The notes below the pieces were generated by a model. That model did no database searches. It worked only from the letters and a program-made list of their open reading frames with translations, and was not told where the DNA came from. Shown here piece by piece: positions 2,075 to 29,870 of a stretch of DNA of 64,000 nucleotides. Origin of the DNA: Acidobacteriota bacterium. Its GTDB lineage: Archaea; Nanobdellota; Nanobdellia; Woesearchaeales; DATGWN01. How positions within the stretch are numbered: the first letter of the stretch is position 1; the number at the start of each line of letters is the position of its first letter. Location: positions 716 through 64,715 of the forward strand of contig DATGWN010000047.1 in NCBI GenBank assembly GCA_035299465.1. Reading direction: 5' to 3'. The position numbers and the translations under genes were made by a program.

Positions 2075-2162
2075 TATATTTTTGCCGCGTATTGCTCGTT
2101 CGACATTATTTTTGTCCGTCTGCCGTAGTTGGCAAGGACATTATTAAATATACTGAAATAAC

Positions 2163-3059: not shown

Positions 3060-3247
3060 ATCATTTCTCCGATATCAGTTTCTTCTTCTGTTATCAAAGA
3101 AAGATCGTTTTGTGACGTTGTTGTCTGCGGTGTTTCAAGCGGTGCCGTCTTTGGAGGATTCTGAGAATCTTCCTGAGGTGCCGATGCACACGCAGTGAGC
3201 AACAAGACGCTGATCAACAGCAAGGCAATGATAGCTTTAGTTCTCAT
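3056..3247 (-). CDS. small secreted lipoprotein-like protein
   Basis: Signal peptide with lipobox-like 'LLTAC'. Start overlaps the stop of the upstream gene by 1 nt. Confidence 0.45.
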   Translation of the reverse strand: MRTKAIIALLLISVLLLTACASAPQEDSQNPPKTAPLETPQTTTSQNDLSLITEEETDIGEMI

Positions 3248-4557
3248 TAGTTCACCTGTACTGAGATAACGTCATCATCGTCCGAATCGTCTTCTTCATC
3301 GTCATCGGAACCCGAGTTATCGTCGTCATCATCAGAGTCGTCGTCCGAGCCAGAATTGTCATCTGAGTCGTCGTCTGAACCGGAGTTGTCATCTGAGTCA
3401 TCATCTGTTTCATCTAAGTCGTCATCCTGGTCGTCTACTTTGAGTTTTTCTTCATATCGTAGTCGGCCGTCTTTATATTCTTGCTTGATTTCGACAAAGC
3501 TGCCGTTACCGAGTTGCAACTTGAATCGCTCTCGCATTCGGTCGTCTCTTTGCTCAGATCTCCATTCCATGAGGTCCTGCTTATTTTCAGCGCGGACTTC
3601 GATTCGGCCTGGAGCCATGTATGATCGAAGGCGTGAGAACGCTCTTGGATAGTCTTGTAAGACATCCGCTAATTCAGATTGTGTCTGAACTACTGCCTTG
3701 GAAAACACTGTTGCGTTGATTCGGCCATCGACATAGTCATCAAGTAGACCAGACCAGTTCTGTCGCAAGTCAAGCAATGCTAACGATAGATTCGTGTCGT
3801 TCGTCTGATTTATCATCATACCGAGAACTTCGATTCTATGCGTCAAGATGTTTGCTCGAATCTGTGCAGTTACGTTAACACGGTCTGCTTTCAAGCCTTC
3901 AATTTCAGCTTTGATTTGAGTTCTGATTGCAGCGATGTCATCGTTTGAGACTTCATCTGCGCGAATCTTTTTCTTGATGCTATCGAACTTTCGTTCAAGG
4001 CCCGGGAAAGCTGTGACGTTTTCGTCATCAGACAAGTTGAGTGCATCTTTTTGGTGCTTTTCTACGAAACTGTCGAATCTGTCTTCGTTTGCTCGGATTC
4101 GCAATTCATGTGCTTTCTTGATTTGCATGGCATGCGTTTCGTTGAATTCTTTTTCTACTTTCAATTTAAGCTTGGCTTTGAATTCTGCGGAGAACAGATC
4201 TTTTGCTGCATCTCGGAATTCCTTGACCAAATCTTTTGCTTGATCTCGCGCTTCTTTGACTTCATCAAGTGTCAAATTAGTTGTGACATTTGCTCGAAGG
4301 TCGATAAGCGAGTCAAGTATAGTTTGTAATTGTGTTACGTTGGAATTGTTCACGGACCCATTTGCGGACACGTTTGCAATCACGTTGGCTCCAATCTGGA
4401 TTGCTTTATCCATATGGAGACCCAGTTGTGTTGACTGCGCTACTGCTGCTGATTCTTCGGTTGCGAAAACGCCTACCAAACTGACCAGCGCCAGCATTGC
4501 AATCAATATCCATTTGATTGTCTTCATTGTTGTACCTCTGTGCGCCATTGGCTGCAC
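3247..4557 (-). CDS. secreted coiled-coil protein with D/S-rich acidic repeat C-terminus
   Basis: N-terminal signal peptide, long heptad-like region, C-terminal 'DDDSDDNSGS' repeats encoded by 30-bp DNA tandem repeats. Confidence 0.7.
   Translation of the reverse strand: MQPMAHRGTTMKTIKWILIAMLALVSLVGVFATEESAAVAQSTQLGLHMDKAIQIGANVIANVSANGSVNNSNVTQLQTILDSLIDLRANVTTNLTLDEVKEARDQAKDLVKEFRDAAKDLFSAEFKAKLKLKVEKEFNETHAMQIKKAHELRIRANEDRFDSFVEKHQKDALNLSDDENVTAFPGLERKFDSIKKKIRADEVSNDDIAAIRTQIKAEIEGLKADRVNVTAQIRANILTHRIEVLGMMINQTNDTNLSLALLDLRQNWSGLLDDYVDGRINATVFSKAVVQTQSELADVLQDYPRAFSRLRSYMAPGRIEVRAENKQDLMEWRSEQRDDRMRERFKLQLGNGSFVEIKQEYKDGRLRYEEKLKVDDQDDDLDETDDDSDDNSGSDDDSDDNSGSDDDSDDDDDNSGSDDDEEDDSDDDDVISVQVN
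3296..3410. repeat. about 3.5 copies of a 30-bp in-frame tandem repeat (units at 3338-3367 and 3368-3397 nearly identical)
   Basis: 'tcgtcgtc(c/t)ga(g/a)cc(a/g)ga(a/g)ttgtcatctgag' repeated head-to-tail. Encodes the acidic tail of the 3247-4557 protein. Confidence 0.8.
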
Positions 4558-6176: not shown

Positions 6177-8309
6177 TTAGCGCGCAGTCATGAATGATTT
6201 TTGCATCGTTTGATTAGACATATTGGATAAAATCGACACTAACTGATTATAGACTGCGTCGCTGTCGAGTGCTTTTACATGAAGATCCGTATTGAGAGCA
6301 TCAGTGCACGTACCGTTGAAAATCGTGTAGAGTCTTGCGCCTTGTAATTTACTTGAGTCCTCGGTTACTACACCGTCTCCGAACGTGCCATCCATTACGC
6401 ATCCGGTATGTGCAATGACATACCATTCTCCGGTGACGGGAGGCAATTTACGCAAGAACGCACTTCCTGCAGAAAGATCGTCACATTCTTTTACCGCACC
6501 AAATAGTGGACAATAGGACTGCACTGTGCCGTTTACTCCGCCAAACGGTGAATTAAGCGTAATGAATGCCTTTACATCTTCGTCTCCGAACAGCGATTCA
6601 TATGAACGAGCAACCAATCCGCCCATGGAATGCGCTACTACGATTACTTGCGGTGCGCCACTTTGTTGTTTGATGTCTTTGATGATTTCTCTTAAGCGCA
6701 ATGCGTAATTCTCTATTCGTTCCGACTTTTGAATCGTTACGTCATATGAACCAAGATTGTACACAGTCTGGTAATAGAAACTTGCTCGCACGGTAAAAGG
6801 AATTTGGACAGGCACGCCACTAGCCGAATATTCGCCCGCATTCACATATCCTTCGTCTTCTAGCTTTTGCTGGATGTGAGCGAAGGCCTGCATAGAGACC
6901 AATGGGTCATTATCTTCGGTGAATGCGTGACCATGTATGAATACTATTGGAGGTTTTTGGTGTTGGCATTTGCCACAAGTGTCTTTTACGCAACAATTAG
7001 CGCTAGCATCCAGCAAATTCACAGGCGCGGACGGTTCGAATGGAGGAAAGGTGACTGTCATCACTTGCGCAATCGATGGCATGTTAATGTTGACAGTCTG
7101 CTTTACATCGCAGTAACTTGGGACTTGTGCAAGAAATGTCACAGACATATCTGGTTCGCTCAAAAGGGAAACTTGCGATTCATTGAGTATTGTGACATTT
7201 GTCAGATTCGCGCTCACGACGTACAGATTATGATCTTTTATTTTTTGAATCCGGTCACAGATTGTTTGGATTGTTTGGTTGGTTGAAGGCGGAGTTATTG
7301 TCAACGAAGTATTTACGAGTGAGATGTATGACTCAAGTTGATCCAGACGCTGCATTGTTGCGGCTTTTTTCTCAAGATATAATAGCGTTTTATTTGTAAG
7401 ATACGACGTTGCCCCTGTATAGATGACTTGCGTACGGGGAGGATCAGCGTCTGTGGTCATGGATAACACGTCAGACAATTTGCCGATAGCTAATGATACT
7501 TGCGCTGCATCCGTATCATGCGTTTGCGCGTATGTGATGAATTCAACGACCGATGTATTTGACAAAAATGTAATCGCATCCAGCTGCATATGTGCCAACT
7601 GATCTCTGCTGGCATTCGTGAACAACAACAAGGGCGCAAGCAACATGTTTGGTTCAAATGTGCGTATCAATGACTCGGAGAGATTATATTGCTGAGTATT
7701 CCAATACGCTGCCGCTGTCATGATTTGTGCGCGCGTGAATGTCGGAGCGGGTATTTCCGTTATCGGCCAAATATCCTTGAGTGTAAGGTAGTACTCGTAT
7801 TCGTCAAGATTGTCTTTAGCTTGTGTGAGTGCAGTCTGCAGTTCGTCTTTTCGTTCCAGAATTTTCTTATCTGTTTCATTAAGAGAGTATTCTAGGACAA
7901 TGAGTGTTGTTCGTTCGCGCGGAACACCGGTCGCAGGACAGAGCGATGACGGAAGCACGGCGCAACTAGTTCGAAAGTGAGTCATATATTGACCGAAACC
8001 GAACTCAGGTGCGGTGATATTGAACGTGTGCGATTCTTGCGGATTCGTTGAAGAGTAATTATAGACATCGTCGACCGAATAGTTACACACGGCGGAGCAA
8101 GTAGCGTATGTAAAAAAACGAGTGTCAATCGTAATCGGTACCGTTTGATTTGCGAGCACTTTTGCAACGAAAGGAGTAGGACTAACTTTGACTAGCACTT
8201 CGTCGTCGAGCGTGAAATGCACTTGTGCGAAAAGCAAGATGAGCAAAATGCCAATAAGTGCCGCTGCACTCATGATTGCGATTAGCCAAAAAAGGGTCTT
8301 GCGTTTCAT
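6177..8309 (-). CDS. secreted/membrane-anchored alpha/beta-hydrolase (lipase/esterase-like) with large N-x-S/T-rich N-terminal domain
   Basis: N-terminal TM/signal 'LFWLIAIMSAAALIGILLILLFA'. C-terminal 'VVAHSMGG' GxSxG nucleophile elbow and 'FIHGH' oxyanion region (PGAP1/DUF676-like lipase fold). More than 20 N-glycosylation sequons. Confidence 0.7.
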   Translation of the reverse strand: MKRKTLFWLIAIMSAAALIGILLILLFAQVHFTLDDEVLVKVSPTPFVAKVLANQTVPITIDTRFFTYATCSAVCNYSVDDVYNYSSTNPQESHTFNITAPEFGFGQYMTHFRTSCAVLPSSLCPATGVPRERTTLIVLEYSLNETDKKILERKDELQTALTQAKDNLDEYEYYLTLKDIWPITEIPAPTFTRAQIMTAAAYWNTQQYNLSESLIRTFEPNMLLAPLLLFTNASRDQLAHMQLDAITFLSNTSVVEFITYAQTHDTDAAQVSLAIGKLSDVLSMTTDADPPRTQVIYTGATSYLTNKTLLYLEKKAATMQRLDQLESYISLVNTSLTITPPSTNQTIQTICDRIQKIKDHNLYVVSANLTNVTILNESQVSLLSEPDMSVTFLAQVPSYCDVKQTVNINMPSIAQVMTVTFPPFEPSAPVNLLDASANCCVKDTCGKCQHQKPPIVFIHGHAFTEDNDPLVSMQAFAHIQQKLEDEGYVNAGEYSASGVPVQIPFTVRASFYYQTVYNLGSYDVTIQKSERIENYALRLREIIKDIKQQSGAPQVIVVAHSMGGLVARSYESLFGDEDVKAFITLNSPFGGVNGTVQSYCPLFGAVKECDDLSAGSAFLRKLPPVTGEWYVIAHTGCVMDGTFGDGVVTEDSSKLQGARLYTIFNGTCTDALNTDLHVKALDSDAVYNQLVSILSNMSNQTMQKSFMTAR

Positions 8310-8358: not shown

Positions 8359-9720
8359 TTACATGTCAATATAATTCTTGACTGGAGTATTTTTTTGAGC
8401 CATTCCTCGGAACTGTAGAGATGCCTTCTTGCACAGATCATGATAATTAGAATATAGCCACATGTTGACGTCCAAATTCTGCTCGTGGCCAAATGAGAGC
8501 TGCTTTGAGAGCTGGGTGAGTGTAGTTAGTCGACTTTCATCCGTTTGCGATTGGAATTTTGCCTTGAACTGGGCGGTGCGTGCGTATGTGCGGATACCTT
8601 CGTGCTTTGATACTTGCGCAAGCAGACGAGGATAGAATGGTCCAGACATACTTGGTCCAACAATATATTCCAAAACAGGGGACGCATGCTCAAGAATGTA
8701 TGAAGTACGCATTTTGTCGTTTTTAACGCGGGAGAAATATGATTGCACTTGCTCAAGCATCGCGTACGTGCTTGTATGTTCCATAGAGCGCAGCCGGGAT
8801 TTTCGGTGCTCAAGTACGGTTTCACTAGGGACGTAGATGCCAGCACTTACGAGTTGATTGAGCGCATCTGGCGCGTCAGCACAGATAATCTTCAAAAGAG
8901 GAATTGTGAAATCAGGTGCTGGCCCGAAAGTGACTGCGACGTTTTCTTTGGTGTGAGGATTATAGATGAACTTCCAATCTGCCCCGTTAATCTTAAGTGC
9001 GATTTCATTTACATGCACGTCAATCTCGTTGGACATATCAATTGTGAGATATCGTGATAATGCACCTAATCGTGAACGCAGCGCAAGTGCGTCTGTTGTC
9101 ATTTGAGATACGTTTTGAGTCGTCAACAGATACTCTTTTGGTTCAATAGCCATTCTCTCAAATTCTCGTTTGAGGTTTCGAACTCCTGTGACTGTTTTTT
9201 TTGGCGTATCAAGTGTAATCGATAGTTTGTATGGACCTGCTGTGAATTCCGATGGTTTGTCAACAATATTTTCCAACAATAGGCCATTTCGCGCTTTTTT
9301 TATTTTACCGACGATAGCTTTTCGCACGCCAAACGTTGAAATAATCGCGTCCGCTTTGCGATACAACTCTTTTACAAACGGCAGTAAATATTGATCTTCA
9401 CTGTTTGCGAAGTCTGCGTTGATTTGCTGTTGAGATAGTATTAGGACATCGCCATTAAATGGGTTTTGCGCTGAGCTGCCAATGATTCCGACTCGTGGTG
9501 GAACTATATCTGGTTTTTGTAAGGATTCCAAGCCTTTTCGCATGTGTTCAATTTCATCGCCTTGGACTTCGTACGATAATTTCGGTTTGAGGTACAAAAC
9601 GGATTGTTCGACTGCGCCAGCACTTTTAAGAAACTCCTCATCCAGACTACTAATTACAGGACGATCACGAGATATTTCTTTGAGTGCGGCAAGCTCCATT
9701 AATCGGCGGAACTGAGTCAT
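8359..9720 (-). CDS. hypothetical protein (last gene of AAA/vWA operon)
   Basis: 453 aa. Start overlaps the upstream stop (ATGA). No recognised domain. Confidence 0.7.
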   Translation of the reverse strand: MTQFRRLMELAALKEISRDRPVISSLDEEFLKSAGAVEQSVLYLKPKLSYEVQGDEIEHMRKGLESLQKPDIVPPRVGIIGSSAQNPFNGDVLILSQQQINADFANSEDQYLLPFVKELYRKADAIISTFGVRKAIVGKIKKARNGLLLENIVDKPSEFTAGPYKLSITLDTPKKTVTGVRNLKREFERMAIEPKEYLLTTQNVSQMTTDALALRSRLGALSRYLTIDMSNEIDVHVNEIALKINGADWKFIYNPHTKENVAVTFGPAPDFTIPLLKIICADAPDALNQLVSAGIYVPSETVLEHRKSRLRSMEHTSTYAMLEQVQSYFSRVKNDKMRTSYILEHASPVLEYIVGPSMSGPFYPRLLAQVSKHEGIRTYARTAQFKAKFQSQTDESRLTTLTQLSKQLSFGHEQNLDVNMWLYSNYHDLCKKASLQFRGMAQKNTPVKNYIDM

Positions 9721-11450
9721 AGTGTTTTTGCTTGTTCTCCGATTTTCATTGCAAGGAACGAACGCATTTTCTCTTGCTCAGCTAACATCTTTTCGACTTG
9801 CTTTGCTTTTTCATCCTGTTGGCGTGCGTCCATTGCTGCGAGCGTCTTCAAATATGCGTCAAATTTGGCAATGATTTTCTCTGCAGATAATTCGCCGATG
9901 CTGTCCAACCTGAATTTGAGTTTTTTGTCAAAGGACCACGTCAACATTTCAGGTGATACTACCATGTTGCCGGATCGAATGTCATCAAATACGTGTCCGA
10001 TTTGACGGTTATTCAATTCAATGGACTTAAGGTATTCACCAAGGTGTAACCATTGTTGTTGCGGCATATCAATAGGCAGACCTTTAGTAAGCGATAATTT
10101 GGAATAGTCCGCGAATTCTTGTGGCGTTGCCAAAGGCGACATCACGAACGTCTGTCCAAAGATTCTACTCTTTGTTGCTTTGTCGATGCCGTCCGAATAG
10201 TTTGCATCCATAATAAAGCCGACCTTACCTATCTTTGGAATCGAACTTCCGTCAAACATTTTCAGATACGTCGAGAAGATCTTCTGTTCTTCTTGCGTCA
10301 TACCGCTTGCTCGGTTTCCAAAAATTGTATCTACATCAGCGATATACTGAACAACGATACCCGGGAAGCCTCGGATTTTTGCGGCGAATTTATCTAACTC
10401 TACTGCTGACTGATTTTGATAGTGCGAAATATAATCAGTTGCACTGTGAATTCCTACCCAACACGGGATCTGTGCATCTTTGCACATTTGAGCAATCCAT
10501 TGCAAATGCGCGTTTGCAAATACAGTTTTACCACAACCAGGCGGGCCGTCGATGTATGTGCACATAGGCACTTTCTCGACGTTCTTTGCAACCGAGTGAT
10601 CGTATAGGGCAATCTTGAGCAGCCATTGCTGAACGTCCGCTTTCATTTTTGCGTTGCCGATGATATCATCAGGCATCAAGCGCATGACACGTTCATCTAT
10701 TTCGACGCGATTATCTTTTGTCGAAAATGCGCCATCTTTGATCGTGAAGCGATCGTACTTGAGTGTGAGCCCTTCGATGTCGCGTGCTTTTGCCACGTCC
10801 TTGTGTGTCGACCATCTGAACTGGTTTATCCATGACGTGAATGTGTAGGCAAGGACGTCTTTGAGCGCTTCGTCGCTGGGCTTTTCGCCATCGGCTCTTA
10901 CTTTTGCAAACCACTTAGTCATATCGGCTTGCGTTTGCTTTACAAGATTTTGTGTCAGGGTTTCATCGTCGCGCGAGAAACTCATGTCTGCGTCGAATGC
11001 ATAGATGTCATTTGTCGCAGAGAGAGGTCGATTGAGCATAGATAGGCCAACGTGGCCAGCGAATGCTAATGCGTATTTGTTGGCAAGCTGTACGCTTGTC
11101 ACATAGTCCGCGCGTGTCGCAGAGGGCTTATCCTGTGTCGTTTGATCGTGTGTCGCAGTCAATCTCAATTCTAACGAGCCGACGTCCATGTTTTTTCGAA
11201 GCGTTTGCGTGGATTGCTGAAAAATACCTAATGCTTGTTCGTATACGTCGAGGATTTGTACTTGTGGAACGGTTATACGTGTACCATTTGCCAGCTCTTT
11301 GTTGACAAGTGCATATGCGCTTTGATAGACAGCAGCCTTAGGCATTGCAAGTTGCTGCAAGCCTTGAGCTGCATTGGGATGGGCAATATATTTGCGGATG
11401 CTTTCTAAACCGTCTTGTACATTTTTTGTGATGTCTTCATATTTTGTCAT
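9717..11450 (-). CDS. classical-clade AAA ATPase with ~300-aa novel N-terminal region and degenerate Walker B
   Basis: Walker A 'GPPGCGKT' (as in Cdc48 D2). 'VVQYIADVDTIFG' aligns to 'IIFIDEVDALTG' with DE->AD. SRH-like 'FIMDANYSDGIDKATKSRIF'. Confidence 0.8.
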   Translation of the reverse strand: MTKYEDITKNVQDGLESIRKYIAHPNAAQGLQQLAMPKAAVYQSAYALVNKELANGTRITVPQVQILDVYEQALGIFQQSTQTLRKNMDVGSLELRLTATHDQTTQDKPSATRADYVTSVQLANKYALAFAGHVGLSMLNRPLSATNDIYAFDADMSFSRDDETLTQNLVKQTQADMTKWFAKVRADGEKPSDEALKDVLAYTFTSWINQFRWSTHKDVAKARDIEGLTLKYDRFTIKDGAFSTKDNRVEIDERVMRLMPDDIIGNAKMKADVQQWLLKIALYDHSVAKNVEKVPMCTYIDGPPGCGKTVFANAHLQWIAQMCKDAQIPCWVGIHSATDYISHYQNQSAVELDKFAAKIRGFPGIVVQYIADVDTIFGNRASGMTQEEQKIFSTYLKMFDGSSIPKIGKVGFIMDANYSDGIDKATKSRIFGQTFVMSPLATPQEFADYSKLSLTKGLPIDMPQQQWLHLGEYLKSIELNNRQIGHVFDDIRSGNMVVSPEMLTWSFDKKLKFRLDSIGELSAEKIIAKFDAYLKTLAAMDARQQDEKAKQVEKMLAEQEKMRSFLAMKIGEQAKTL

Positions 11451-11466
11451 AGTAATACCTTTTCAG

Positions 11467-12603
11467 TCATTTCTCAAATAAATACGACTGAGCGCCAAGC
11501 AAATGCTCTGCGACGGTGCCTGCGTATTTTGCTTTTGTCACGGAAAACAAATCATTCCACTTCATTCGATGGATTTTTTGGAATGTGCGACCTTGCCGAA
11601 CTTCTGCGTTTGGCGCGTATGCGTAATCTCGCGAACATCGCAACAAGTCAAATTCTTTATCCTTGTCGATCAACGCTAGACTCACCGGGAATGGCTTGAA
11701 GCCTTGTGGTGATGTGAAATATTGATTATCAAATGGTCCAACCAGGAGTCGTGTCATGTGCACTGGATGGATCGTCGGATACTCTTCGTCGATTTTTTGT
11801 AACATGTACCATGCATCATTGTTTTCACTAAAATCGAACTCTCGCGCAAATTTATCTGAAAGTGTGTCTACGCCTTCACCCTCTTTTTTTACAAATGGCT
11901 CATCTCCTTCTGCAGGGACGTCTTCCCACAAATCCATGACGTATATCTGAAACATTCCTCTCGCGCGGCTATATTGGATTGACGATACGGACCACAGTGT
12001 CTCAACACCAAGATCAATCTCTTTTTTGACGATGATAGAATCTTTTTTTTGCATATCGGCCGGACCGATAAGGAGTTGATCGCCAAGATACTCGAAGTAA
12101 TTTCGCTGCAGCGCAGTCTGGTATATTTTATCAGCGTGCTGTGCGACTTCAGTCATGTCGACTTCATCTGAACTGAGCAAATCCTGCAGTTTTAGCGCTA
12201 ATGCGTCGTACTGCGGCAGACTATTGAGGAACTCGTCGCGCCGCTCCTTATGGATAATTATATCGGTTATCGACGAATACCAAGGAAGGCCTGATTCAGT
12301 AGAAATACCAAGTTCGCGAAGATGCGATCTGTTCTTGGCAGGGGTGGGATCGGTTGTGATGCTGCGCATCAAATCATACATGTTTCTGACTCGTTGCAAT
12401 TGAGTGACCAAAATATCTGAAGTGTGATTGAACGATGGCAATCGTGACCAGTCCCAAGAAGATGCGCGTGCGACGGCTTCTACTGACTCTTTTCGGAATA
12501 ACTGTTCGTTTTTTAGATTATGGCACAAAACTGAAAGTGATGCATCAAGTGAATCAAGATACCGCTCTTTTTCAGATCCAGTTATGATATGAACTTCTTT
12601 CAT
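11467..12603 (-). CDS. hypothetical protein
   Basis: 378 aa, no recognised motif. Same strand, 16-nt spacing to the next gene. Confidence 0.7.
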   Translation of the reverse strand: MKEVHIITGSEKERYLDSLDASLSVLCHNLKNEQLFRKESVEAVARASSWDWSRLPSFNHTSDILVTQLQRVRNMYDLMRSITTDPTPAKNRSHLRELGISTESGLPWYSSITDIIIHKERRDEFLNSLPQYDALALKLQDLLSSDEVDMTEVAQHADKIYQTALQRNYFEYLGDQLLIGPADMQKKDSIIVKKEIDLGVETLWSVSSIQYSRARGMFQIYVMDLWEDVPAEGDEPFVKKEGEGVDTLSDKFAREFDFSENNDAWYMLQKIDEEYPTIHPVHMTRLLVGPFDNQYFTSPQGFKPFPVSLALIDKDKEFDLLRCSRDYAYAPNAEVRQGRTFQKIHRMKWNDLFSVTKAKYAGTVAEHLLGAQSYLFEK

Positions 12604-12683
12604 CAGCCATCGTTACACTCGTCGACAATCGTCGAACAAATTGCGCGTTCGTGCGAAAGATCGCACGTACAAAAAAATAAAAT

Positions 12684-13940
12684 TTAGTGAGTTGTGTAGT
12701 GTCCGCCAGTCTCTGTACGGATAGCTTCCATGATGCCCTTGATAGACTTTTGAGCTTCTGCATATTGCATGTCCTTTTCGAGGACTTCGGACTCAAATTC
12801 CAACAAACGGGATCGAATCTGTCGACCATCTTCAACACTATACACCGGAGTTTCATAGATCGTTCTGATCTTTTGTTCCACGTGTTCGAGCAATCGCTGG
12901 TTGATGTCAAGCATTGCACGCGCGGAGCTTCCAAGTGTAATCAATCCGTCTGCAAGTCTGTCGGCAAGTTGTCCTTGGCTTGCGAGTCGTGCTGAGATCT
13001 TGAAGTTCTCCATGACGTACGTCTTCATGTCCATGTACATATCTTTGAGCTTGTTGAATTGCGTGACATATTGTTCTGCTTGCGCCATAGAGACGTCTGA
13101 CGCGACAATACTGCCTTTGATTGTGTCGACACTGTGTGCGACTGAGAGGACTCGTCTTCGTAGATCGGATACTTTGCCGTCTGCGCCGACTTTACCATCG
13201 ACAAGGTCATACTTCTTATCCAAAGTCTCTTGCGCTTTTTGTGCCAGAGCTTTGACTGCCCCGACATCGTTTGCATTCTTTGCTTTTTCGATTTCAGCGT
13301 GAAGCATAGTAAGTGTCTCGTCAAAGAACGATAATTCAGTCATATACTTAGTAACTTCTGCAGTGGCTTCAGCCATTTCGTCATCCGACACATAGCCTTC
13401 TTGGAGTTTGTCGATGAGACTTCTTTCAAGGAAGCGCTTGTTGTTGATAGCGCGAGTTCGCGTTTCGAGAACTTTTGCAAGTCCTTCTTCTGCGCGTTGG
13501 TAAGCAGTTGTGACTACTTCGTCCATTTTCTGAGCGATTGTGTCCAGTGATTCTGCATTTCTTGTGTATGCATTTACTTCTATTTCGTCGGCCTTGTCTT
13601 GGTTCTTCCAGACATGAGTGTACCAGCCGAGTCGGAATCTTTCATGTAATTTGAATGAGCCGTTTTTAGACAACAAGTCAGCGAATTCTGCGTTGTGTAC
13701 GCCGTACTGTCGTCCTAGTTTACTAAGTGAGAGTGTGATCTGCGCCATTTCTTCTCGGATTTGTGCAGCTTCATCTTTTTGCGTGTCTTGTTTAGGTGAT
13801 GCGCTGACGCGAGTAGGCGTTGCCTGTCGTGTTGCTGGTCTACGCAACGTTTGGGAAATAGTAGATGCTGGAGCGGCTGTGTATGTACCGATCTTCTGTA
13901 ATCTTTGTTCAAGTTCGCTTGAAATTGCTGTTTGGCTCAT
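12684..13940 (-). CDS. long coiled-coil protein
   Basis: 418 aa, heptad-rich and charged. S/T/P-rich N-terminus 'RRPATRQATPTRVSASPKQ'. Confidence 0.7.
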   Translation of the reverse strand: MSQTAISSELEQRLQKIGTYTAAPASTISQTLRRPATRQATPTRVSASPKQDTQKDEAAQIREEMAQITLSLSKLGRQYGVHNAEFADLLSKNGSFKLHERFRLGWYTHVWKNQDKADEIEVNAYTRNAESLDTIAQKMDEVVTTAYQRAEEGLAKVLETRTRAINNKRFLERSLIDKLQEGYVSDDEMAEATAEVTKYMTELSFFDETLTMLHAEIEKAKNANDVGAVKALAQKAQETLDKKYDLVDGKVGADGKVSDLRRRVLSVAHSVDTIKGSIVASDVSMAQAEQYVTQFNKLKDMYMDMKTYVMENFKISARLASQGQLADRLADGLITLGSSARAMLDINQRLLEHVEQKIRTIYETPVYSVEDGRQIRSRLLEFESEVLEKDMQYAEAQKSIKGIMEAIRTETGGHYTTH

Positions 13941-14054
13941 TGTTGTTACCCCTAAGTAGTATAATATTGAAACGTATATGCACTTCGTTTATATAGTTTT
14001 GCTCCGGAAGTCTCCGTTTTTTTAGTATTTTTCTCGTCGCAACAAAGTCAGTAT

Positions 14055-15440
14055 TTATAAACTGTCTATGGACTTGAGTTCTCCTAGTGTTTTTGTAAGG
14101 TCTAGGATCATGTTTCCTGCCAATTTTTTGCTATCTATTAGCATGACACGAGTCTTTGGACCTGCAGCCTTGCCTATGGCTTTGACATTTTCTTTTGCTT
14201 GACCGTCTCCATCTACCAAAAAGATACGTAGCAAAACATTTGGCATGGACGCGAAGTACTCGGCTTCTTGTACGGCGTCGGACAAACTGTCGGGCGCACC
14301 GTCTGAAACAAGATACGCCATCGATAATCGTCGATCGGTCAATGTTTCGCGCAACCATTTGAGTCCAAGATGCATCGGCGTGCCTTCGTTAGGAGTGCTG
14401 AGTTTGAGGTATTCTGCGTGTGTTAGACTGGTGACGCGATTGTGATTGAATACTGAGAGCGATACTTTGTTTTTGCTGCTGAGTTGTCGCATCATTGCAG
14501 CTGCGGCACCACCCATTTGTTGTGCGATGTCCCACCGTGTTTTCGTATCCGTTGCTCGATAATCCATGCTGCCGCTATAGTCAACTGTGATGGCCGTATC
14601 TAAGCCGAGTTCTCGATACGTCGGTGTTTTGTATTTTGCCACAACGAAATCTTCAATGATTGGTCGACTTCGTCCAGCAATTTTCATATTGACATTTGTC
14701 GCAAACCAGTCGACGTTTGGCAATTCTGACATATCTTCCATGTGAGTATAGCGGTCGAAGATACCGTTAAATGCAGCGATGGCTTTCTCTTTGATGCCTG
14801 ATTTTCCTGCAACAGAAAGACCTTTGAGCGTTTCGTCCAATAGACTATCTTGCAATCGCGAGACTAATTTATCGTCGTTAAAAGTGAGCGAACCGTATCT
14901 ATCCTTGGAGAACACACCTGTGTCAACTAGATGCTCGCGGATTTTTTCTTGCGCTATTCTTGTGACATCGGCATTTTGGATTTCCTGCTTTTTCTGCTCG
15001 ATTGCGGCAAGTTCTTCTTGCGTCTTTGCTTCGTATGTTGCAGCGACGTCTTGGACGGCTTGCGATTCAGATTGCTGTACCTGCGTTACTGTTTGCTCAA
15101 GCGTTTGTGCAGCAGTTTTCTTGGCATCGATCTCGTTTTTTGTGCCTACAATACTTTGCGCTTTAGAGCCGATACTGGAGAGTCCTTGCGTAATTTCGAG
15201 CGCTTGCAATCGTTTCTCGTATACATGCGTGGCATACTGCGAAATGAGGTCGTTGGTCTTTCGTTCATACCAACCTGTGAATATGCGTTTTCCGACAGAA
15301 AGCTTGAATTTTTCCGTTCTACTTAAGTTCAAGTATTCGTGGACTTTTTCTCGGAATTGAACGTCTCCTCTATATCGTGATCCAAATGAACGAATGTACG
15401 CTTCCTTTGTGTATCTGAGCGGGACTTTTAATTGCGTCAT
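14055..15440 (-). CDS. von Willebrand factor A (vWA) domain protein with N-terminal coiled-coil region
   Basis: C-terminal vWA with MIDAS 'DYSGSMD' (DxSxS), then T and 'SDGAPD'. N-terminal 300 aa Q/E/A-rich coiled coil. Start overlaps the upstream stop (ATGA). Confidence 0.8.
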   Translation of the reverse strand: MTQLKVPLRYTKEAYIRSFGSRYRGDVQFREKVHEYLNLSRTEKFKLSVGKRIFTGWYERKTNDLISQYATHVYEKRLQALEITQGLSSIGSKAQSIVGTKNEIDAKKTAAQTLEQTVTQVQQSESQAVQDVAATYEAKTQEELAAIEQKKQEIQNADVTRIAQEKIREHLVDTGVFSKDRYGSLTFNDDKLVSRLQDSLLDETLKGLSVAGKSGIKEKAIAAFNGIFDRYTHMEDMSELPNVDWFATNVNMKIAGRSRPIIEDFVVAKYKTPTYRELGLDTAITVDYSGSMDYRATDTKTRWDIAQQMGGAAAAMMRQLSSKNKVSLSVFNHNRVTSLTHAEYLKLSTPNEGTPMHLGLKWLRETLTDRRLSMAYLVSDGAPDSLSDAVQEAEYFASMPNVLLRIFLVDGDGQAKENVKAIGKAAGPKTRVMLIDSKKLAGNMILDLTKTLGELKSIDSL

Positions 15441-16327
15441 GAGTCACCACCCTTATATCCGAATATAGAGAGAAAACCATAATAGGTACGTTTGATGAAG
15501 CCTTTCTTCTTCTTGACGGGGCCTGCTTTTTTGACAATCTTTTCCAGATTTCCTGTGCTTGCAAGTTGCTCGGCAGTGGCATTTGTTTTCAGTAATTCAA
15601 GTCCCAAAGTAATGTCAGCAGGATCACTTGTTTGGTTTGAGTTTGATTCGAGGTTTGATTCTTGCACCTGCGCTGTTTGTGCTGCATACTGGTCGACGTT
15701 CGTTTCGGGAGTTGATTGAGATTGCGGGCTTTGCTGCGGACTTTGATCTGCGGCTTTTTTTTGCTTTTCGTCCAGCGGTTCCTCTAACATTGCATCCAGC
15801 TCGAGAATCTTGGCTAGACCTTCTTCGCCACCTATCTCTTTGAGCTGTGCAGCTACTTTTGCACGAGATTCGTCTAATTGGCCTTGTGCACAAAGATATT
15901 CTTGCGTCGATTTGTCGTACGCATTTAGTGTTGCGTCAAGTTGTGCTTTTTGTTCCTGCAATTTTGCAGTGTATTGATTTTTTATTGCGAGTATCTCTGC
16001 TTCGCGCTTTTCTTGCAGCACTCTTTTTTTCTCGGCTTCTTCTGCGGAGAGAGCGTCAAGTGCTTTCATCTGTTGATAGCCGTGACTTTTTGCAATTTGC
16101 TGAGAAATCTGACTGACAATACTTTCTGAACTGAGAATACTGTCAACTGTGCGCTGTGCATCAGCGCCTCGTTTCCACGCACTAAACATAGCTTCGTTCA
16201 ATGCAGCTTCAAGCCGTTTTAGATCGACTGGCGGAGTGCGGAATAGTTCACACTGTGCAAGCCTGAACTCGTCAAGTGACATCCTAACCTTTAAGTGGGA
16301 TCTTGCACTTGGAATGCTGCATCGCAT
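15437..16327 (-). CDS. Q/E-rich coiled-coil protein with polybasic C-terminus
   Basis: 296 aa. 'KKAGPVKKKKGFIKRTYYGF' tail. Overlaps the upstream gene by 44 nt. Confidence 0.65.
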   Translation of the reverse strand: MRCSIPSARSHLKVRMSLDEFRLAQCELFRTPPVDLKRLEAALNEAMFSAWKRGADAQRTVDSILSSESIVSQISQQIAKSHGYQQMKALDALSAEEAEKKRVLQEKREAEILAIKNQYTAKLQEQKAQLDATLNAYDKSTQEYLCAQGQLDESRAKVAAQLKEIGGEEGLAKILELDAMLEEPLDEKQKKAADQSPQQSPQSQSTPETNVDQYAAQTAQVQESNLESNSNQTSDPADITLGLELLKTNATAEQLASTGNLEKIVKKAGPVKKKKGFIKRTYYGFLSIFGYKGGDS

Positions 16328-18575
16328 CCATATAGAATTGTGCAGTCTCTTTGAGTTGTGCTATGCTGAGCTGATGGAAATTAGCTTCCGTATCAAAGAA
16401 CATACCTGCGAGTGGATATTCCTTCTTGAGGATATGAGTTTCTCGTGCGTTCTGGTTTTTCACTGCTGCTTGCAATTCTTCAAATGGTCGTACAAGCTCA
16501 GTAACGTCAGCATATGTTTTTTGAAGCTGTGTTTCAAATCGTTTTGCGATTCCAGCAGATACTGATTCTTTACTTGCAATGTCCTTGAATTGGTTGCACC
16601 ACCAGACATCTGCTTCTTGTGTGAAGACGGATTCAATTTGACCAGTCACGAGTTTTTCAATCGCTTCGTAATTTGCGATTTCGGCTGCTCGATCGTCGCA
16701 CGCAAGTCTACTTCTTGTCGCGAACAAGACACCGTTCGTTGCATAGGGCATCGTTACGATGTGTGGTCGCTTTTCGTAGAAGAGTCTGTCAATGAATAGT
16801 TGTGATCGCGCTGCATACAATGCGTCAAGTTTGGAACGGTTTCCTAAGATTATGCTCGTGCTGTCTTCGCTTCGGATCTCACGCATTTTGATATAAAGTG
16901 CGTCGATGGATCTTTCAAGCAACGATGGCATGGAAACAGTTTTGACAATGTCGATTGGTTGCATGATGTGTACGTCCGGGATTTCTACTGCAGATGGTTC
17001 TTCACGCAAGCCGTGAATACTTGCACGAGTAATCTTATGGCTAACGTCAACATCTTGAGGATAGTGCATCGGGAAGAACAATACTCTGTCCTTTATTGGA
17101 GCAGTAAAGCAGTCGACTTCGTTTGCGTTCTTGAAAATTGCAGCGTGTGCAGGATTCTCGAATCTGATCTGGTCAATCTTGACTCTGTTATTTGAAAGGG
17201 CGAATCGAAGTGTGTCTTTTTCTGCGTCTGGGATCAAGTGGGCTTCGTCAATGATGAGAACACCGTTGTTTGTTCGCACGAGTGCACCATACTGTACGCC
17301 TTCTGGGTCGTAACCGTTGGATTTTGCATTTGCGTCAGTTGGCATCTTATAGCCGACAAGGTTGAATTGTCTGACACCTGGTGTACCGTTGAGAAGCTCG
17401 ACACCAAAACCTGGTCCGAATGCCTTGACATCGACGTTAATTTTTGAAGGATGTTTTGGCTTAAAGATACCTGTTGCGCGATATTTACCAGTGTTATCAT
17501 GCGCGATCATCGTCTCTGCACAAGGTATTACTTTTCGTGCGAAGCTTGGATCGATGAGTGAGAATGGGGACGTCTGACATTGCGAGCCTTCAGCAACGAA
17601 TTGGATTTCACGTTGCTGTGCAATAGCTGCAAGATCTTCACATATAGTAGTCTTTCCACCGCCCGCTGGACCATAGAAAACCATGTCTTTGTTCATCAAG
17701 ATTCCAGTTGCAACATCGTTTGCGAATGCAGTTTCCACTTTTGTCTTTGGGAACACGCGTGCAAACGCTTCTTCGCGAACTACTTCTTCGATATCAGCTG
17801 GTTCTTCTTGCCCGTGACTTGATACTTGCAATACGCCATGTGCTTCGTCAATTGGGAGCGTATACATTGTTTCTGAACCACGTTTTGGTTTGACAGCAAT
17901 TGCGATGATCCCTTTGTCCTTATCGTATTCTACGATGCGGCCAGTTGTATTTGCTTTGATTTTTTTCTTTTCTCGTCCTTCTGAAACTTCAATTGCTTCT
18001 GTGACTCGAATCAAATGTCCAAGGTCTGGTTTTGCAACAACGCCTGGATGCAAATCATATGCCACCGGTACTTGATCATCGGATGTGAATTCAACATGAT
18101 TCCAAGGTACTGTGACTCTGTATTTATTGCCCACTTTTGTGGATTCGTCGACTTGGCCGTCGAGCTTTTTTACCGGATCGTCGTATTCAACTACGATGCC
18201 TGATGAGCCTGATTTTTTTGGTGAATCGCCGTATTCATACACGCGACCAACCATATTTTCCAAATCCCATTTCTTGTATGGACCTACGACGCGAACTGCT
18301 GCCGTCGTTTTGTCAGATTTCGATAATGATGTCAGATAATCGTATTTGTCTGCAGCTTCTTTCAATTCTGATGCTTTTACTGTCTCTGCTTTGACTGCTG
18401 GAATCCATTGTCCGAGCATATCTGGTGATAACTGGGATCGAGCCTCGTCTCTGGCTTTCTTGAGTCGTTCGACAGTAATCAATGCAAGATATTCGGATGA
18501 TGTTTTAGGAACTACGCCCATATCGATTAAATCTTGCGCTGTCTTTACTCGAGAATATTTATCTGCTAATGCCAT
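16284..18575 (-). CDS. MoxR/ChlI-like (helix-2-insert clade) AAA+ ATPase with ~280-aa N-terminal repeat domain and C-terminal extension
   Basis: Walker A 'GPAGGGKTT'. Walker B/sensor 'LIIDEAHLIPDAEKDTLRFALSNNRVKIDQIRFENPAHAAIFKNANEVD' matches the DExNLL...L..LE.g.v.i.R...PA.F.L.A..NP pattern of Mg-chelatase/MoxR AAA+. N-terminus has duplicated 'GR(V/I)xEYD' modules. Confidence 0.8.
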   Translation of the reverse strand: MALADKYSRVKTAQDLIDMGVVPKTSSEYLALITVERLKKARDEARSQLSPDMLGQWIPAVKAETVKASELKEAADKYDYLTSLSKSDKTTAAVRVVGPYKKWDLENMVGRVYEYGDSPKKSGSSGIVVEYDDPVKKLDGQVDESTKVGNKYRVTVPWNHVEFTSDDQVPVAYDLHPGVVAKPDLGHLIRVTEAIEVSEGREKKKIKANTTGRIVEYDKDKGIIAIAVKPKRGSETMYTLPIDEAHGVLQVSSHGQEEPADIEEVVREEAFARVFPKTKVETAFANDVATGILMNKDMVFYGPAGGGKTTICEDLAAIAQQREIQFVAEGSQCQTSPFSLIDPSFARKVIPCAETMIAHDNTGKYRATGIFKPKHPSKINVDVKAFGPGFGVELLNGTPGVRQFNLVGYKMPTDANAKSNGYDPEGVQYGALVRTNNGVLIIDEAHLIPDAEKDTLRFALSNNRVKIDQIRFENPAHAAIFKNANEVDCFTAPIKDRVLFFPMHYPQDVDVSHKITRASIHGLREEPSAVEIPDVHIMQPIDIVKTVSMPSLLERSIDALYIKMREIRSEDSTSIILGNRSKLDALYAARSQLFIDRLFYEKRPHIVTMPYATNGVLFATRSRLACDDRAAEIANYEAIEKLVTGQIESVFTQEADVWWCNQFKDIASKESVSAGIAKRFETQLQKTYADVTELVRPFEELQAAVKNQNARETHILKKEYPLAGMFFDTEANFHQLSIAQLKETAQFYMDAMQHSKCKIPLKG

Positions 18576-23257: not shown

Positions 23258-23989
23258 ATGGAAAAGCTGCACATTGAAGTCAGAACTATCGATAACATAC
23301 GTACTATGTATATCGAGGGAAAGGCTCAAAGCGCAATGGATGTAACCAATCCAACGCTTGCGGTTTTTGATTATACAAAGTATTTCTATGTACCTTTGTG
23401 TTTGATTGCTGTGAAACGCGCGCTCTTCATAGGTGGAGGCGGATTCAGCGGTCCAAAAATCTATGCGCATCATGGTATCGCCGTAGACGCTGTGGAAGTT
23501 AACCAAGAAGTGGTCGACATCGCAAAACGCCAATTCGCTCTTGACACTCAGACATTCAATGTGTTCGTTGAGGACGGAAGAGCTTTTCTGACGCAGTGCA
23601 GTGTTTCATATGATGCAATAATATTGGATGCATTCATCGCAGAAAAAGTACCATTGCAGTTCACGACGTTTGAATTCTTCACATTGGTGCGAAAGCATCT
23701 TTCTGAAAATGGCTTACTCGTGTTCAACGTGATTTCTGCACCAGAATTATGGTTCTTCCAATCCTTAGTACGCACTCTAAGCAGTGTATTTGCAAGTGTA
23801 CTCGCTTTTGATCTGAGTCCGGCTGCGACACAAACTCGAAACATTATCATAATCGCAAGTCCCTCTAAGCTTAACCCGACGCAAGTGCGAAAAACTTGTG
23901 CACAGTCAACGTTCGACTTAGCAAGAGAGATGGAACTATTCATAGAAAACGTACAGACTCGCCGCGGCGAGATTCTGCGTGATTCTTAA
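23258..23989 (+). CDS. spermidine synthase-like / class I SAM-dependent (aminopropyl)transferase
   Basis: 'LFIGGGGFSGPK...VEVNQEVVDIAKRQF...IILDAF' resembles the spermine/spermidine synthase fold. Confidence 0.6.
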   Translation: MEKLHIEVRTIDNIRTMYIEGKAQSAMDVTNPTLAVFDYTKYFYVPLCLIAVKRALFIGGGGFSGPKIYAHHGIAVDAVEVNQEVVDIAKRQFALDTQTFNVFVEDGRAFLTQCSVSYDAIILDAFIAEKVPLQFTTFEFFTLVRKHLSENGLLVFNVISAPELWFFQSLVRTLSSVFASVLAFDLSPAATQTRNIIIIASPSKLNPTQVRKTCAQSTFDLAREMELFIENVQTRRGEILRDS

Positions 23990-24423
23990 TTGACTTTATA
24001 GACGACAACGCCCACTTTAGTGTGATTTAGAAGCGAGTCTGGGTTGGTATAATTAAGTTGGATTCCTGACCGGAAGACTGCGTTTGGCAGCGTGCATGTC
24101 GCAGTGTAATTTCCAAGGTCACCTGGCGCAAGTGTGGCAGGGCCTAGTGCATTTGCGCATTTGTCAATCGTGACTTGTACATTAGTAAGATCTATCGGCA
24201 ATCCGTTTTGAATGGAAAGAATAACACCAGTCTGGTTGGCACGTGCATCGACACAGATGATGCCGGAATAAAACTCACATTTTTCATTGACGAACGAGTC
24301 CAGATCAAACACACCAGAATACACGAGTACGCCTAACGTGAGCAAGATGATTGAAAATGCCCAACCATACGTCATCAAAAATTCTACGGCCGCCTGGCCC
24401 TTTCGATTATTCTTTCGCATCAT
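23986..24423 (-). CDS. archaeal type IV pilin-like protein (class III signal peptide)
   Basis: 'RKGQAAVEFLMTYGWAFSIILLTLGVLV': KG|Q cleavage site plus hydrophobic stretch. Confidence 0.75.
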   Translation of the reverse strand: MMRKNNRKGQAAVEFLMTYGWAFSIILLTLGVLVYSGVFDLDSFVNEKCEFYSGIICVDARANQTGVILSIQNGLPIDLTNVQVTIDKCANALGPATLAPGDLGNYTATCTLPNAVFRSGIQLNYTNPDSLLNHTKVGVVVYKVN

Positions 24424-26811: not shown

Positions 26812-26814
26812 AGT

Positions 26815-29743: not shown

Positions 29744-29870
29744 TTATATAGTTTACGTATGATTCCGCCCAGAAATGTATGTCAAAACGAGGTGTATTTT
29801 AGAGTAGTTACACTTGCAGAAGAATTCGCGCTTTTGTCTTTCTCTATTTGTTGGATTTAGTGTCAGCTGA

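Follow-up and report, generated by a model that had tools for sequence, protein, structure and literature searches.

A 64,000-nucleotide stretch of contig DATGWN010000047.1 (assembly GCA_035299465.1, Woesearchaeales in the GTDB taxonomy), which we refer to as the window, carries seven tightly packed genes, g1 to g7, between positions 8359 and 18575. A preliminary description had proposed that these genes, which encode two different AAA+ ATPases, a vWA protein and four proteins with coiled coils or no recognised domain, form an undescribed system. The locus raises the question of whether the seven genes belong together and, if so, what kind of machine they encode.

Organization of the locus

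The ORF read-out reproduced the described layout: all seven genes are on the minus strand, at the coordinates and with the spacing originally given except for the start of g2. From g7 to g1 the intergenic distances are -4, 16, 80, 114, -4 and -44 nt, and direct reading of the sequence confirmed the two ATGA stop/start overlaps. The 44-nt overlap between g1 and g2 is probably an artefact of an over-extended g2 start, because all g2 homologues begin at the residue aligned to Met16. If Met16 is the start, g2 shrinks from a 296-aa ORF (15437..16327) to ~281 aa (15437..16282), and the g1/g2 junction reads TAG-G-ATG, with a 1-nt spacer, at 16280-16286.

The block consists of module A (g1, g2 and g3) and module B (g4, g5, g6 and g7), separated by the 114-nt gap (13941..14054). 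The TATA-like element previously noted in this gap was read at 13988-13995 (TATATAAA). A second TATA-like element (AATATTATA) was found at ~13959-13967, and the gap also contains an AGGGG Shine-Dalgarno-like motif. These elements make the gap a candidate internal promoter for module B, which would be consistent with the divergent or permuted arrangement of the two modules in other genomes. Directly after the stop codon of g4 there is an oligo-T run (12671-12682), which is followed by a 7-bp hairpin (12650-12667). On the minus strand this segment (12650..12682) is a candidate partial terminator that might raise the output of g4 relative to g5-g7.

Conservation of the gene set

All seven families were found together in at least 16 further loci with 22-38% identity, giving at least 17 loci, in very small genomes, with the window. 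The complete sets (L001, L002, L003, L005, L007, L008, L009, L012, L013, L014, L016, L027, L029, L030, L032 and L034) are in DPANN genomes of the Woesearchaeota and Pacearchaeota type. There is no conserved flanking gene: outside the seven, no family is common to more than two loci. The recurrence of the same seven families in 16 further loci, against at most two for any flanking family, indicates co-occurrence beyond chance. The proposal of an undescribed seven-gene system is thus supported, since the linkage is kept, the genes are not scattered singly, and neither a known operon nor a viral module was matched. The implicit assumption of a single indivisible operon did not hold. The two modules are separable and occur in the orders A-B and B-A and divergently; there are also loci with module B without module A, meaning that no module A was present inside the 7.5-8.5 kb flank fetched.

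The architecture of all seven proteins is constant across the 17 loci, and the pairwise-identity matrices of six families (g6 left out) correlate with r = 0.56-0.86. Between the window and L013, AlaRS is 55% identical, whereas the proteins of the system share only 22-31% identity. A pattern scan of GTDB matched the system in only 15 of 185,579 species, and the g7 family is tiny (75 cluster representatives among 1.84e9 proteins). The neighbours of the seven-gene variant are housekeeping genes encoding CTP synthase, DNA Pol B, AlaRS and FKBP. On one short contig a TrbC pilin gene lies downstream of the block.

Proteins of module A

The g1 gene (16284..18575) encodes a 763-aa ChlI/BchI-like AAA+ ATPase of the helix-2-insert clade. 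It had been classified as MoxR/ChlI-type, and the ChlI part of this assignment was the better supported. The best PDB profile matches were BchI/ChlI (1.7e-8), followed by Lon and MCM. Pfam Mg_chelatase (PF01078) scored 25.4 bits (cut-off 20.3), the match being confined to the ~95 residues that surround Walker B and sensor 1. The window copy had no Pfam match to AAA_3 or AAA_5 at E<=0.1; among the homologues Mg_chelatase was matched in 10 of 11 and AAA_5, weakly, in 8 of 11. Judged by these matches g1 is nearer to ChlI/BchI than to MoxR. Conserved elements include Walker A (G302-K308), Walker B (D443-E444), the sensor-1 residue N485 and R497. A four-Cys cluster between Walker A and Walker B is found in 10 of 11 homologues; the window copy lacks three of the four cysteines. 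The N-terminal ~280 aa, which include two beta-rich modules, are without a match and have no sequence relative in the PDB, and the C-terminal ~250 aa are helical. The duplication reported for the N-terminus gave a weak signal (hhalign, P=0.0065), and one copy of the module is missing from g1 of L001.

In g2 an N-terminal motif of 45 aa is conserved. It is followed by a coiled coil and then a low-complexity Q/S/P linker, and the protein ends in an amphipathic tail that is both cationic and aromatic; the PDB yielded only generic helical matches. The tail has the top helical hydrophobic moment of the entire protein in 11 of 13 homologues and a net positive charge in 11 of 13, with 3-7 aromatics among the last 32 residues. 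From these properties of its sequence we infer that the tail is a membrane-targeting helix, and they are the basis for the membrane tethering proposed below.

The g3 gene (14055..15440; 461 aa), which shares an ATGA overlap with g2, encodes a protein whose conserved N-terminal region is followed by a coiled coil and a middle domain; at its C-terminus is a vWA domain in which the MIDAS is complete. The vWA/MIDAS assignment of the preliminary description was borne out by the invariance of D287-x-S289-x-S291, T354 and D380-G381 in 14 sequences and by weak profile matches to vWA structures (TRAP, 3.3e-4; GBS pilus adhesin, 4.4e-4; Sulfolobus VWA2, 5a8j, 0.011). The N-terminal 270 aa gave no P-loop or AAA match; they consist of coiled coil and of sequence without any match. 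The protein terminates with the vWA domain, to which no effector domain is fused.

Proteins of module B

The 418-aa product of g4 (12684..13940) has a disordered N-terminus, in which an R-x-S-x-x-P motif is conserved; then come ~350 aa of long helices or coiled coil. Four segments of the protein are heptad-like. It had no match in the PDB. TelA (PF05816) was matched in 2 of 15 g4 homologues with 20.9 and 16.2 bits (2.1e-4 and 5.9e-3), below the gathering score of 30 bits; the two matches are collinear (model positions 213-310), and the window copy had none. On this evidence g4 may be TelA-like.

The g5 (11467..12603; 378 aa; alpha+beta) and g7 (8359..9720; 453 aa; alpha/beta) proteins have no known fold and, as first described, no motif: neither had a match in Pfam, PHROG, PADLOC or NCBIfam. 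Invariant polar residues of g5 are D272, H279-P-V-H282, R322 and Y327-x-x-A-P-N. The g7 family is probably a remote branch of DUF6638 (PF20343). This model did not match the window copy; it matched 5 of 55 family members (best 5.9e-7), and the distant g7-like copy of L026, which is tied to g7 by phmmer (3.2e-5, P0081) and blastp (8.9e-13), scored 28.6 bits (cut-off 27).

The assignment of g6 (9717..11450; 577 aa) to the classical AAA clade was confirmed by PF00004 (9.9e-10) and by PDB profile matches to Afg2 (7.8e-8), then Msp1, VAT and katanin. The classical AAA module is preceded by a helical N-domain (~1-255) with no PDB relative, whose sequence gives neither an MIT nor a Cdc48-N signal, and is followed by a helical region. 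Aligned to Afg2, the Walker A residues P304-G305-x-G307-K308-T309, the pore-loop-1 Y344, the sensor-1 N417 and the SRH R429 are invariant. In the HMMER alignment A371-D372, invariant in 7 sequences, stands opposite the Walker B D-E of Afg2, and the first Arg of the SRH is changed to Lys. The altered Walker B suggests slow or regulated hydrolysis; g6 may even be unable to hydrolyse ATP.

Distant relatives and database searches

In the distant relatives of module B, an E1-E2/JAB-like module takes the place of module A. In L019-L021 and L026 a trio of g5-like, AAA and DUF6638 genes lies divergently beside genes for a ThiF protein, which matches the Cap2-like E1-E2 models of PADLOC (1.8e-22), and a weakly JAB-like protein. 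Recombinases adjoin such distant variants.

The search of PADLOC-DB v2 found no catalogued defence system in the block, only P-loop-level matches to IetA, TRIP13 and DinG (E>=4e-4), and nothing for g2, g4, g5 and g7. No effector (nuclease, protease, TIR or pore-former) was recognisable in the block. The earlier observation that no integrase or capsid gene marks the locus as a provirus was corroborated: no integrase, capsid or terminase gene was found around the block, PHROG gave no matches for it, and there was no match to the system among IMG/VR contigs, phage and plasmid records or BFVD structures.

Comparison with known systems

The g1 core is nearest to ChlI/BchI, the motor that Mg-chelatase pairs with ChlD/BchD (compare CobS-CobT), and its putative partner g3, two genes away, is a MIDAS-vWA protein. 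ChlD, however, joins its vWA domain to an AAA-like N-domain, whereas g3 has a coiled-coil N-terminus. A ChlH/CobN-type ORF is neither present in the block nor conserved nearby. Compared with ChlI, g1 is extended by an unmatched ~280-aa N-terminal region and a long C-terminal domain and has an insert with the Cys cluster, and the system comprises five further conserved partners. The feature shared with MoxR-vWA pairs (RavA-ViaA, CbbQ-CbbO, NorQ-NorD, CoxD-CoxE) is the MIDAS-vWA partner in the same module at every locus; ChlD/ChlH-, CbbO- and CoxE-type partners are absent.

vWA-MoxR conflict systems (PMC7159879; bioRxiv 10.64898/2026.09.08.750141) likewise combine a helix-2-insert AAA+ with a MIDAS-vWA protein and proteins of unknown fold, and share the logic of NTP-dependent regulation. 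The system described here differs in that g1 is no clear MoxR and that a second, classical AAA is present. Effector displacement is a hallmark of conflict systems according to Kaur et al. 2020 (PMC7159879), and the ternary systems carry a variable effector fused to the vWA protein or to the third component; g3 has no such fusion. The third component of the ternary systems bears a VMAP-C or inactive-STAND (iSTAND) domain, and PADLOC gave no lead to one in g2, g4, g5 or g7. The ternary systems belong to multicellular bacteria, whereas the hosts here are DPANN archaea.

With the classical AAA remodellers (Afg2/Drg1, Msp1, VAT/Cdc48, katanin/spastin/Vps4) g6 shares Walker A, the pore-loop-1 aromatic, the sensor-1 Asn and the SRH arginine, but it differs in Walker B, in the Lys at the first SRH Arg and in its unmatched N-domain. 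A likeness to Ter/TelA systems (TelA plus a TerF/TerY vWA protein) lies in the ~400-aa helical g4, its sub-threshold TelA matches and the accompanying vWA gene; TelA and a vWA protein were proposed to be sub-membrane components of Ter systems (PMC7824862). Unlike this system, Ter operons have no AAA+ ATPases, and TerB, TerC and TerD genes are missing here. The likeness to the E1-E2/JAB (Cap2/Cap3-like) ubiquitin-like modules of CBASS-type systems is confined to the distant relatives: the window system is without E1, E2 and JAB, and a CBASS cyclase or effector was seen at no locus. Sequence-profile searches with g2, g4 and the N-domain of g6 hit no PDB chains of the MIT or ESCRT-III (Cdv) type.

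Proposed function

The block gives the impression of a genuine machine for protein remodelling, so far uncharacterised. No enzyme domain was found in it, and no client enzyme is linked to its g1/g3 pair. We tentatively favour a membrane-tethered, two-motor remodelling complex of two co-inherited modules, most likely serving an accessory stress or conflict response. This reading is backed by the tiny g7 family, by the divergence of the system beyond that of AlaRS, by the pairing of distant relatives with E1-E2/JAB genes and recombinases, and by the documented role of MoxR-vWA pairs as threat-sensing modules (PMC7159879; bioRxiv 10.64898/2026.09.08.750141, Esr pathway). Counted against it are the lack of a recognisable effector and of a PADLOC match, the invariant architecture without effector displacement, neighbourhoods of housekeeping genes rather than defence islands, the TelA link below the Pfam threshold and a possibly non-hydrolysing g6.

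The same hardware could have a housekeeping role, as a lineage-specific cytoskeletal or membrane-remodelling apparatus functionally analogous to ESCRT-III/Vps4 or PspA/Vipp1. Here g2 and g4 would polymerise under the membrane, g6 would disassemble the polymer and g1/g3 would regulate nucleation, and the apparatus might act in division, budding or episymbiont cell-cell contact. Two or three long coiled-coil proteins, the MTS-like tail of g2 and the resemblance of g6, with its retained pore-loop Tyr, to Msp1, katanin, spastin and VAT agree with this idea, as do the invariant architecture, the correlated divergence and the housekeeping neighbours; the oligo-T after g4 would suit an abundant structural subunit. 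An essential division machine would hardly be so rare, and the sequences gave no signal of the MIT or ESCRT-III kind. Together with the much faster divergence relative to AlaRS and the E1-E2/JAB pairing of module-B relatives beside recombinases, this leaves the housekeeping role unlikely, if still worth serious consideration.

An assembly or cofactor-insertion chaperone of the ChlI-ChlD-ChlH, CobS-CobT-CobN, NorQ-NorD, CbbQ-CbbO or CoxD-CoxE type, with its client encoded elsewhere, is improbable, even though a ChlI-like AAA+ with a MIDAS-vWA protein is the defining core of such chaperones (PMC9976466). No client (ChlH/CobN, Rubisco, cNOR or CODH) was found in or near the 17 loci, g3 is without the AAA-like N-domain seen in ChlD, and the five extra conserved proteins, including a second, different AAA, are foreign to these chaperones. 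DPANN genomes have a minimal metabolism, which also speaks against this role. Some archaeal viruses and jumbo phages carry MoxR-vWA pairs (PMC7824862), and a pair of this kind is needed for tail development of the Acidianus two-tailed virus; the block might by analogy be a provirus or mobile-element module, for example for virion assembly, and the TrbC pilin gene and the recombinases beside distant variants would fit. The absence of hallmark genes and of viral or plasmid relatives, the GC content, which is the same in the block as in its flanks, and the housekeeping genes on either side largely refute this explanation and make it very improbable.

In the stress- or conflict-response machine that we favour, the seven proteins would form a single cytoplasmic assembly. 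Module A would be an ATP-driven switch or adaptor of the ChlI-ChlD/MoxR-vWA type, in which the ring-forming g1 works on or through the vWA domain of g3, carried on a coiled-coil stalk, and g2 anchors the assembly by its C-terminal helix to the cytoplasmic side of the membrane. Module B would supply scaffold and remodeller: g4, probably made in excess given the oligo-T run after its stop codon, would form the scaffold with the globular novel-fold proteins g5 and g7, and g6 would be a classical AAA ring gripping its substrate with the pore-loop tyrosine. Binding by g3 through its MIDAS, together with hydrolysis of ATP by g1, would govern how far the g4/g5/g7 scaffold beneath the membrane is assembled; g6 would thread the scaffold and disassemble or reset it. 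For its DPANN hosts such a machine would lie outside core metabolism and serve in the response to viruses, competitors or damage to the envelope.

Organization of the gene block

The seven ORFs of the block, g1 to g7 in the order of transcription, are all on the minus strand at exactly the coordinates reported in the preliminary description: g1, 16284-18575; g2, 15437-16327 (ORF as called); g3, 14055-15440; g4, 12684-13940; g5, 11467-12603; g6, 9717-11450; and g7, 8359-9720. From g1 to g7 the successive spacings are -44, -4, 114, 80, 16 and -4 nt, and both ATGA overlaps described earlier were seen when the DNA was read directly. The 44-nt overlap between g1 and g2 is probably an annotation artefact. 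In the alignment all g2 homologues start at the residue corresponding to Met16 of the window ORF, where the DNA reads TAG-G-ATG, so the called start of g2 is most likely over-extended and the true protein most likely has a length of about 281 aa.

Direct reading of the 114-nt gap between g3 and g4 revealed the promoter-like element TATATAAA (13988-13995) and a Shine-Dalgarno-like AGGGG. The stop codon of g4 is followed by a 12-nt oligo-T run and a 7-bp hairpin. The GC content of the block is that of the surrounding sequence. A gene with its own TATA-like element (6177-8309), 49 nt downstream of g7, encodes a 710-aa Cys-rich protein, which is N-terminally anchored and has a lipase-like alpha/beta-hydrolase C-terminal domain; it is not kept beside the block in other genomes. 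The window also encodes, at 3247-4557, a secreted helical protein ending in a long acidic D/S/N-rich repeat (DDSDDNSGSDDD...).

Conservation of the block in other loci

Three metagenomic contigs with the seven genes in identical order were found through homologues of g6. A GTDB scan, in which each species was represented by one genome, yielded 15 loci, and a metagenome scan ten further ones. The GTDB loci are labelled Woesearchaeota, Pacearchaeota, Nanoarchaeia/Nanoarchaeota or 'uncultured archaeon', with the exception of three 'uncultured Methanosarcinales' and one contig-end fragment in an 'Uhrbacteria' record (L017). The latter was rejected as a bacterial copy: its g6-like ORF (9845-10909) carries an unrelated N-terminus joined at Walker A, there is no g4 or g5 upstream, and the contig ends here, probably in a chimeric assembly.

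According to BLAST and profile searches, complete sets of the seven families, their proteins 22-38% identical to those of the window, are present in 16 loci other than the window (L001, L002, L003, L005, L007, L008, L009, L012, L013, L014, L016, L027, L029, L030, L032 and L034); most of the remaining loci are cut by contig ends. Thus the genes are linked; the individual scattering that the preliminary description had named as evidence against a system was not observed. The pairwise-identity matrices of six families (g6 left out) correlate with r = 0.56-0.86. When all ORFs of the loci were compared with each other, no further conserved family common to more than two loci emerged, antisense shadow ORFs inside the block excepted.

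The block divides into two modules, A (g1-g3) and B (g4-g7), rather than forming the single indivisible operon implied earlier. The order is A-B in ten loci including the window, B-A in four (L009, L013, L029, L030), and the modules are divergent in two (L002, L008). Locus L004 has module B; g1-g3 are absent from the adjoining 7.5 kb upstream and 8.5 kb downstream. Separability of the modules is consistent with the promoter-like element in the gap between them.

In L004 a truncated extra g4 paralogue (6571-7386) lies just upstream of g4. In L001 a canonical bpMoxR-DUF58-BatA(vWA) operon (215-3114) is directly upstream of the g1 homologue, thus this genome carries a classical MoxR-vWA set adjoining the g1-g7 system. 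The sole hint of wider synteny is an alanyl-tRNA synthetase gene, found within approximately 7 kb of the block in the window (19-1167) and in L013 (4844-6601).

The window contains archaeal pilus/archaellum-type genes. This type IV pilus/archaellum-like locus (24425-30872) encodes two TadB/C-like membrane proteins (24425-26811), a FlaI/PilB-like ATPase (26815-28449) and a long coiled-coil protein (28427-29743); at 23986-24423 are genes for small pilin-like proteins whose N-termini resemble class III signal peptides. Because of this archaeal context, and because the relatives of the seven genes are all in DPANN archaeal MAGs, the NCBI label of the source contig ('MAG TPA: Acidobacteriota bacterium') is probably a binning or taxonomy error.

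Proteins of module A

The g1 protein scored above the Pfam Mg_chelatase (ChlI) cut-off, and its family profile matched BchI/ChlI best (1.7e-8), followed by Lon and MCM. Among 11 homologues ten matched Mg_chelatase and eight AAA_5. Of the original assignment to MoxR/ChlI-type AAA+ proteins, the ChlI part fits g1 better than MoxR. Walker A, Walker B (DE), the sensor-1 Asn and an Arg are conserved. Ten of 11 homologues have a cluster of four cysteines (CxxxC...CxxC) between Walker A and B; in the window protein three of the four are replaced (residues 331-355; window 17513-17584), and a probable zinc site is lost in this lineage. For the N-terminal region of about 280 aa no sequence relative was found in the PDB, and the duplicated module proposed there earlier is weakly supported.

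In g2, a conserved N-terminal motif of 45 aa precedes a coiled coil, and a low-complexity linker leads to the C-terminal tail. PDB profile searches with g2 gave nothing specific. In 11 of 13 homologues the tail has the highest amphipathic moment of the entire protein, its net charge is positive in 11 of 13, and three to seven of the last 32 residues are aromatic. Membrane-targeting helices of the MinD/FtsA type look like such amphipathic cationic tails. Judged from these sequence features, the g2 tail may bind the membrane; hydrophobic stretches of membrane-spanning length are absent from all seven proteins. The C-terminus of g3 is a vWA domain, as proposed: the MIDAS residues (DxSxS, Thr and Asp) are invariant, and there were weak matches to vWA structures.

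Proteins of module B

In g4, approximately 350 aa of helices follow a disordered N-terminus, in which an RxSxxP motif is conserved. Two of 15 g4 homologues gave sub-threshold but collinear matches to TelA. PDB profile searches with g4, g5 and g7 found nothing specific, and two proteins of the system have confident models with no analogue among solved structures. Internal paralogy was rejected by hhalign, which found g5 and g7, as well as g4 and g3, unrelated.

Family and profile matches agree with the earlier placement of g6 in the classical AAA clade. In an alignment with Afg2, g6 has Ala-Asp at the position of the Walker-B Asp-Glu; the pore-loop Tyr, the sensor-1 Asn and one SRH Arg are retained. 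A profile search found no PDB relative of the g6 N-domain.

A word-indexed protein search returned almost no homologues of g5 or g7, and the members of their alignments were drawn from an exhaustive search of representatives and exact cluster look-up. Of 1.84 billion cluster representatives, 75 belong to the g7 family. Five members, from among its most distant ones, matched Pfam DUF6638, one of them above the cut-off; no mention of DUF6638 was found in the literature searched.

Distant relatives of module B

Distant g7 relatives adjoin a classical AAA gene in every locus examined (L019-L021, L025, L026), and on a bacterial 3.6-Mb contig (L022-L024) a g5-like and AAA pair is 7 kb from a DUF6638 gene. 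In the archaeal loci L019-L021 and L026 the trio g5-like/AAA/g7-like is preceded by a coiled-coil protein gene and, in place of g1-g3, is divergent to three common genes. Between L019-L021 and L026 the common genes are 23-37% identical. One partner is a ThiF protein matching the PADLOC E1-E2 (Cap2-type) models (1.8e-22), another has a weak JAB match (conserved ThiF/E1 and weak JAB-like genes at L019 1036-2427 and L026 587-1951 and 1961-3781). Recombinase genes are found nearby, at distances of 5-9 kb. Since the trio pairs with E1-E2/JAB genes instead of g1-g3 in these loci, module B looks like the older core, and the ChlI-like/vWA module looks like one of at least two alternative partners.

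In L019 (11580-17907), as in L020 and L021, ten tandem paralogous genes directly after the g7-like gene encode lipoproteins of about 200 aa with a signal peptide and a Cys lipobox-like motif. Being absent elsewhere, they were not counted with the core of the variant system.

Comparison with known systems

Searches of the seven proteins and two neighbours against Pfam, PADLOC, PHROGs and NCBIfam yielded ATPase matches only; PADLOC, proposed as a check in the preliminary description, matched no system. A chelatase was ruled out, as there is neither a ChlD-type AAA-vWA fusion nor ChlH/CobN, and so were CbbQO-, NorQD- and CoxDE-type operons, no client being present. The constant architecture does not fit the VMAP/iSTAND ternary systems, which have variable effectors (Kaur et al., PMC7159879). 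The FtsZ-like/vWA operons of Makarova and Koonin (PMC2875224) were rejected in view of the different partners and the lack of an FtsZ/tubulin signal. The DPANN protein-family papers searched do not mention AAA or vWA clusters, and the literature searched contained no description of the seven-gene system. The protein combination matches no known one, and module B is of no known system type; the earlier proposal of an undescribed system stands, with the genes linked and no known viral module or operon matched.

Possible mechanism and biological role

The observed parts list, motifs and linkage are best accounted for by a membrane-tethered two-motor remodelling complex, every interaction of which we infer. 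By analogy with ChlI-ChlD and MoxR-vWA pairs, a g1 ring and the g3 MIDAS adaptor would form an ATP-dependent switch, while g2 would anchor the assembly to the membrane. Together with g5 and g7, g4 would serve as scaffold or substrate, and the pore-loop Tyr of g6 would grip and remodel a polypeptide. The Ala-Asp Walker B suggests that hydrolysis by g6 is slow or regulated.

For the biological role we tentatively favour an accessory stress or conflict response, because the system is rare, because its proteins have diverged much more rapidly than the product of a housekeeping gene of these genomes, alanyl-tRNA synthetase (window compared with L013: 55% identity for the synthetase, 22-31% for the system proteins), because the sister systems carry E1-E2/JAB modules beside recombinases, and because AAA+/vWA pairs are established threat-sensing modules (PMC7159879; bioRxiv 10.64898/2026.09.08.750141). 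The lack of a recognisable effector in the block, the architecture that is invariant across loci and the housekeeping neighbours count against such a response; the same three features speak for the chief alternative, a cytoskeletal or membrane-remodelling apparatus specific to the lineage, a reading that we consider somewhat unlikely. Less likely than either is a client-specific chaperone, a quite improbable reading. A mobile-element origin, also less likely than those two, would be very surprising: nothing was found in IMG/VR, phage and plasmid collections, and no integrase or capsid gene was seen near the block, as already noted in the preliminary description.

Beyond the accessory-response reading, it is conceivable, if doubtful, that module B is the core of an unrecognised class of AAA unfoldases with interchangeable substrate-selection modules, MIDAS-vWA/ChlI-AAA+ in Woese- and Pacearchaeota and E1-E2/JAB ubiquitin-like tagging in other archaea. 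If true, the prokaryotic machine would parallel, with unrelated folds, the way in which the proteasome regulatory particle combines Rpt AAA, Rpn10 vWA and Rpn11 JAB.

The block encodes a substantial, well-supported and uncharacterised machine, which occurs in a narrow, uncultivated group. In genomes as tiny as those of DPANN archaea, a conserved block of 10 kb represents a considerable investment. It combines two different AAA+ motors with at least two proteins for which confident models have no match among solved structures. Its function, once worked out, would add a new kind of AAA+/vWA machine to those known and would explain the role of Pfam DUF6638 and of three or four orphan families. 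The exchange of vWA/ChlI for E1-E2/JAB modules offers a handle on substrate delivery to a classical AAA, and the system could bear on how episymbionts handle membrane, hosts or viruses.
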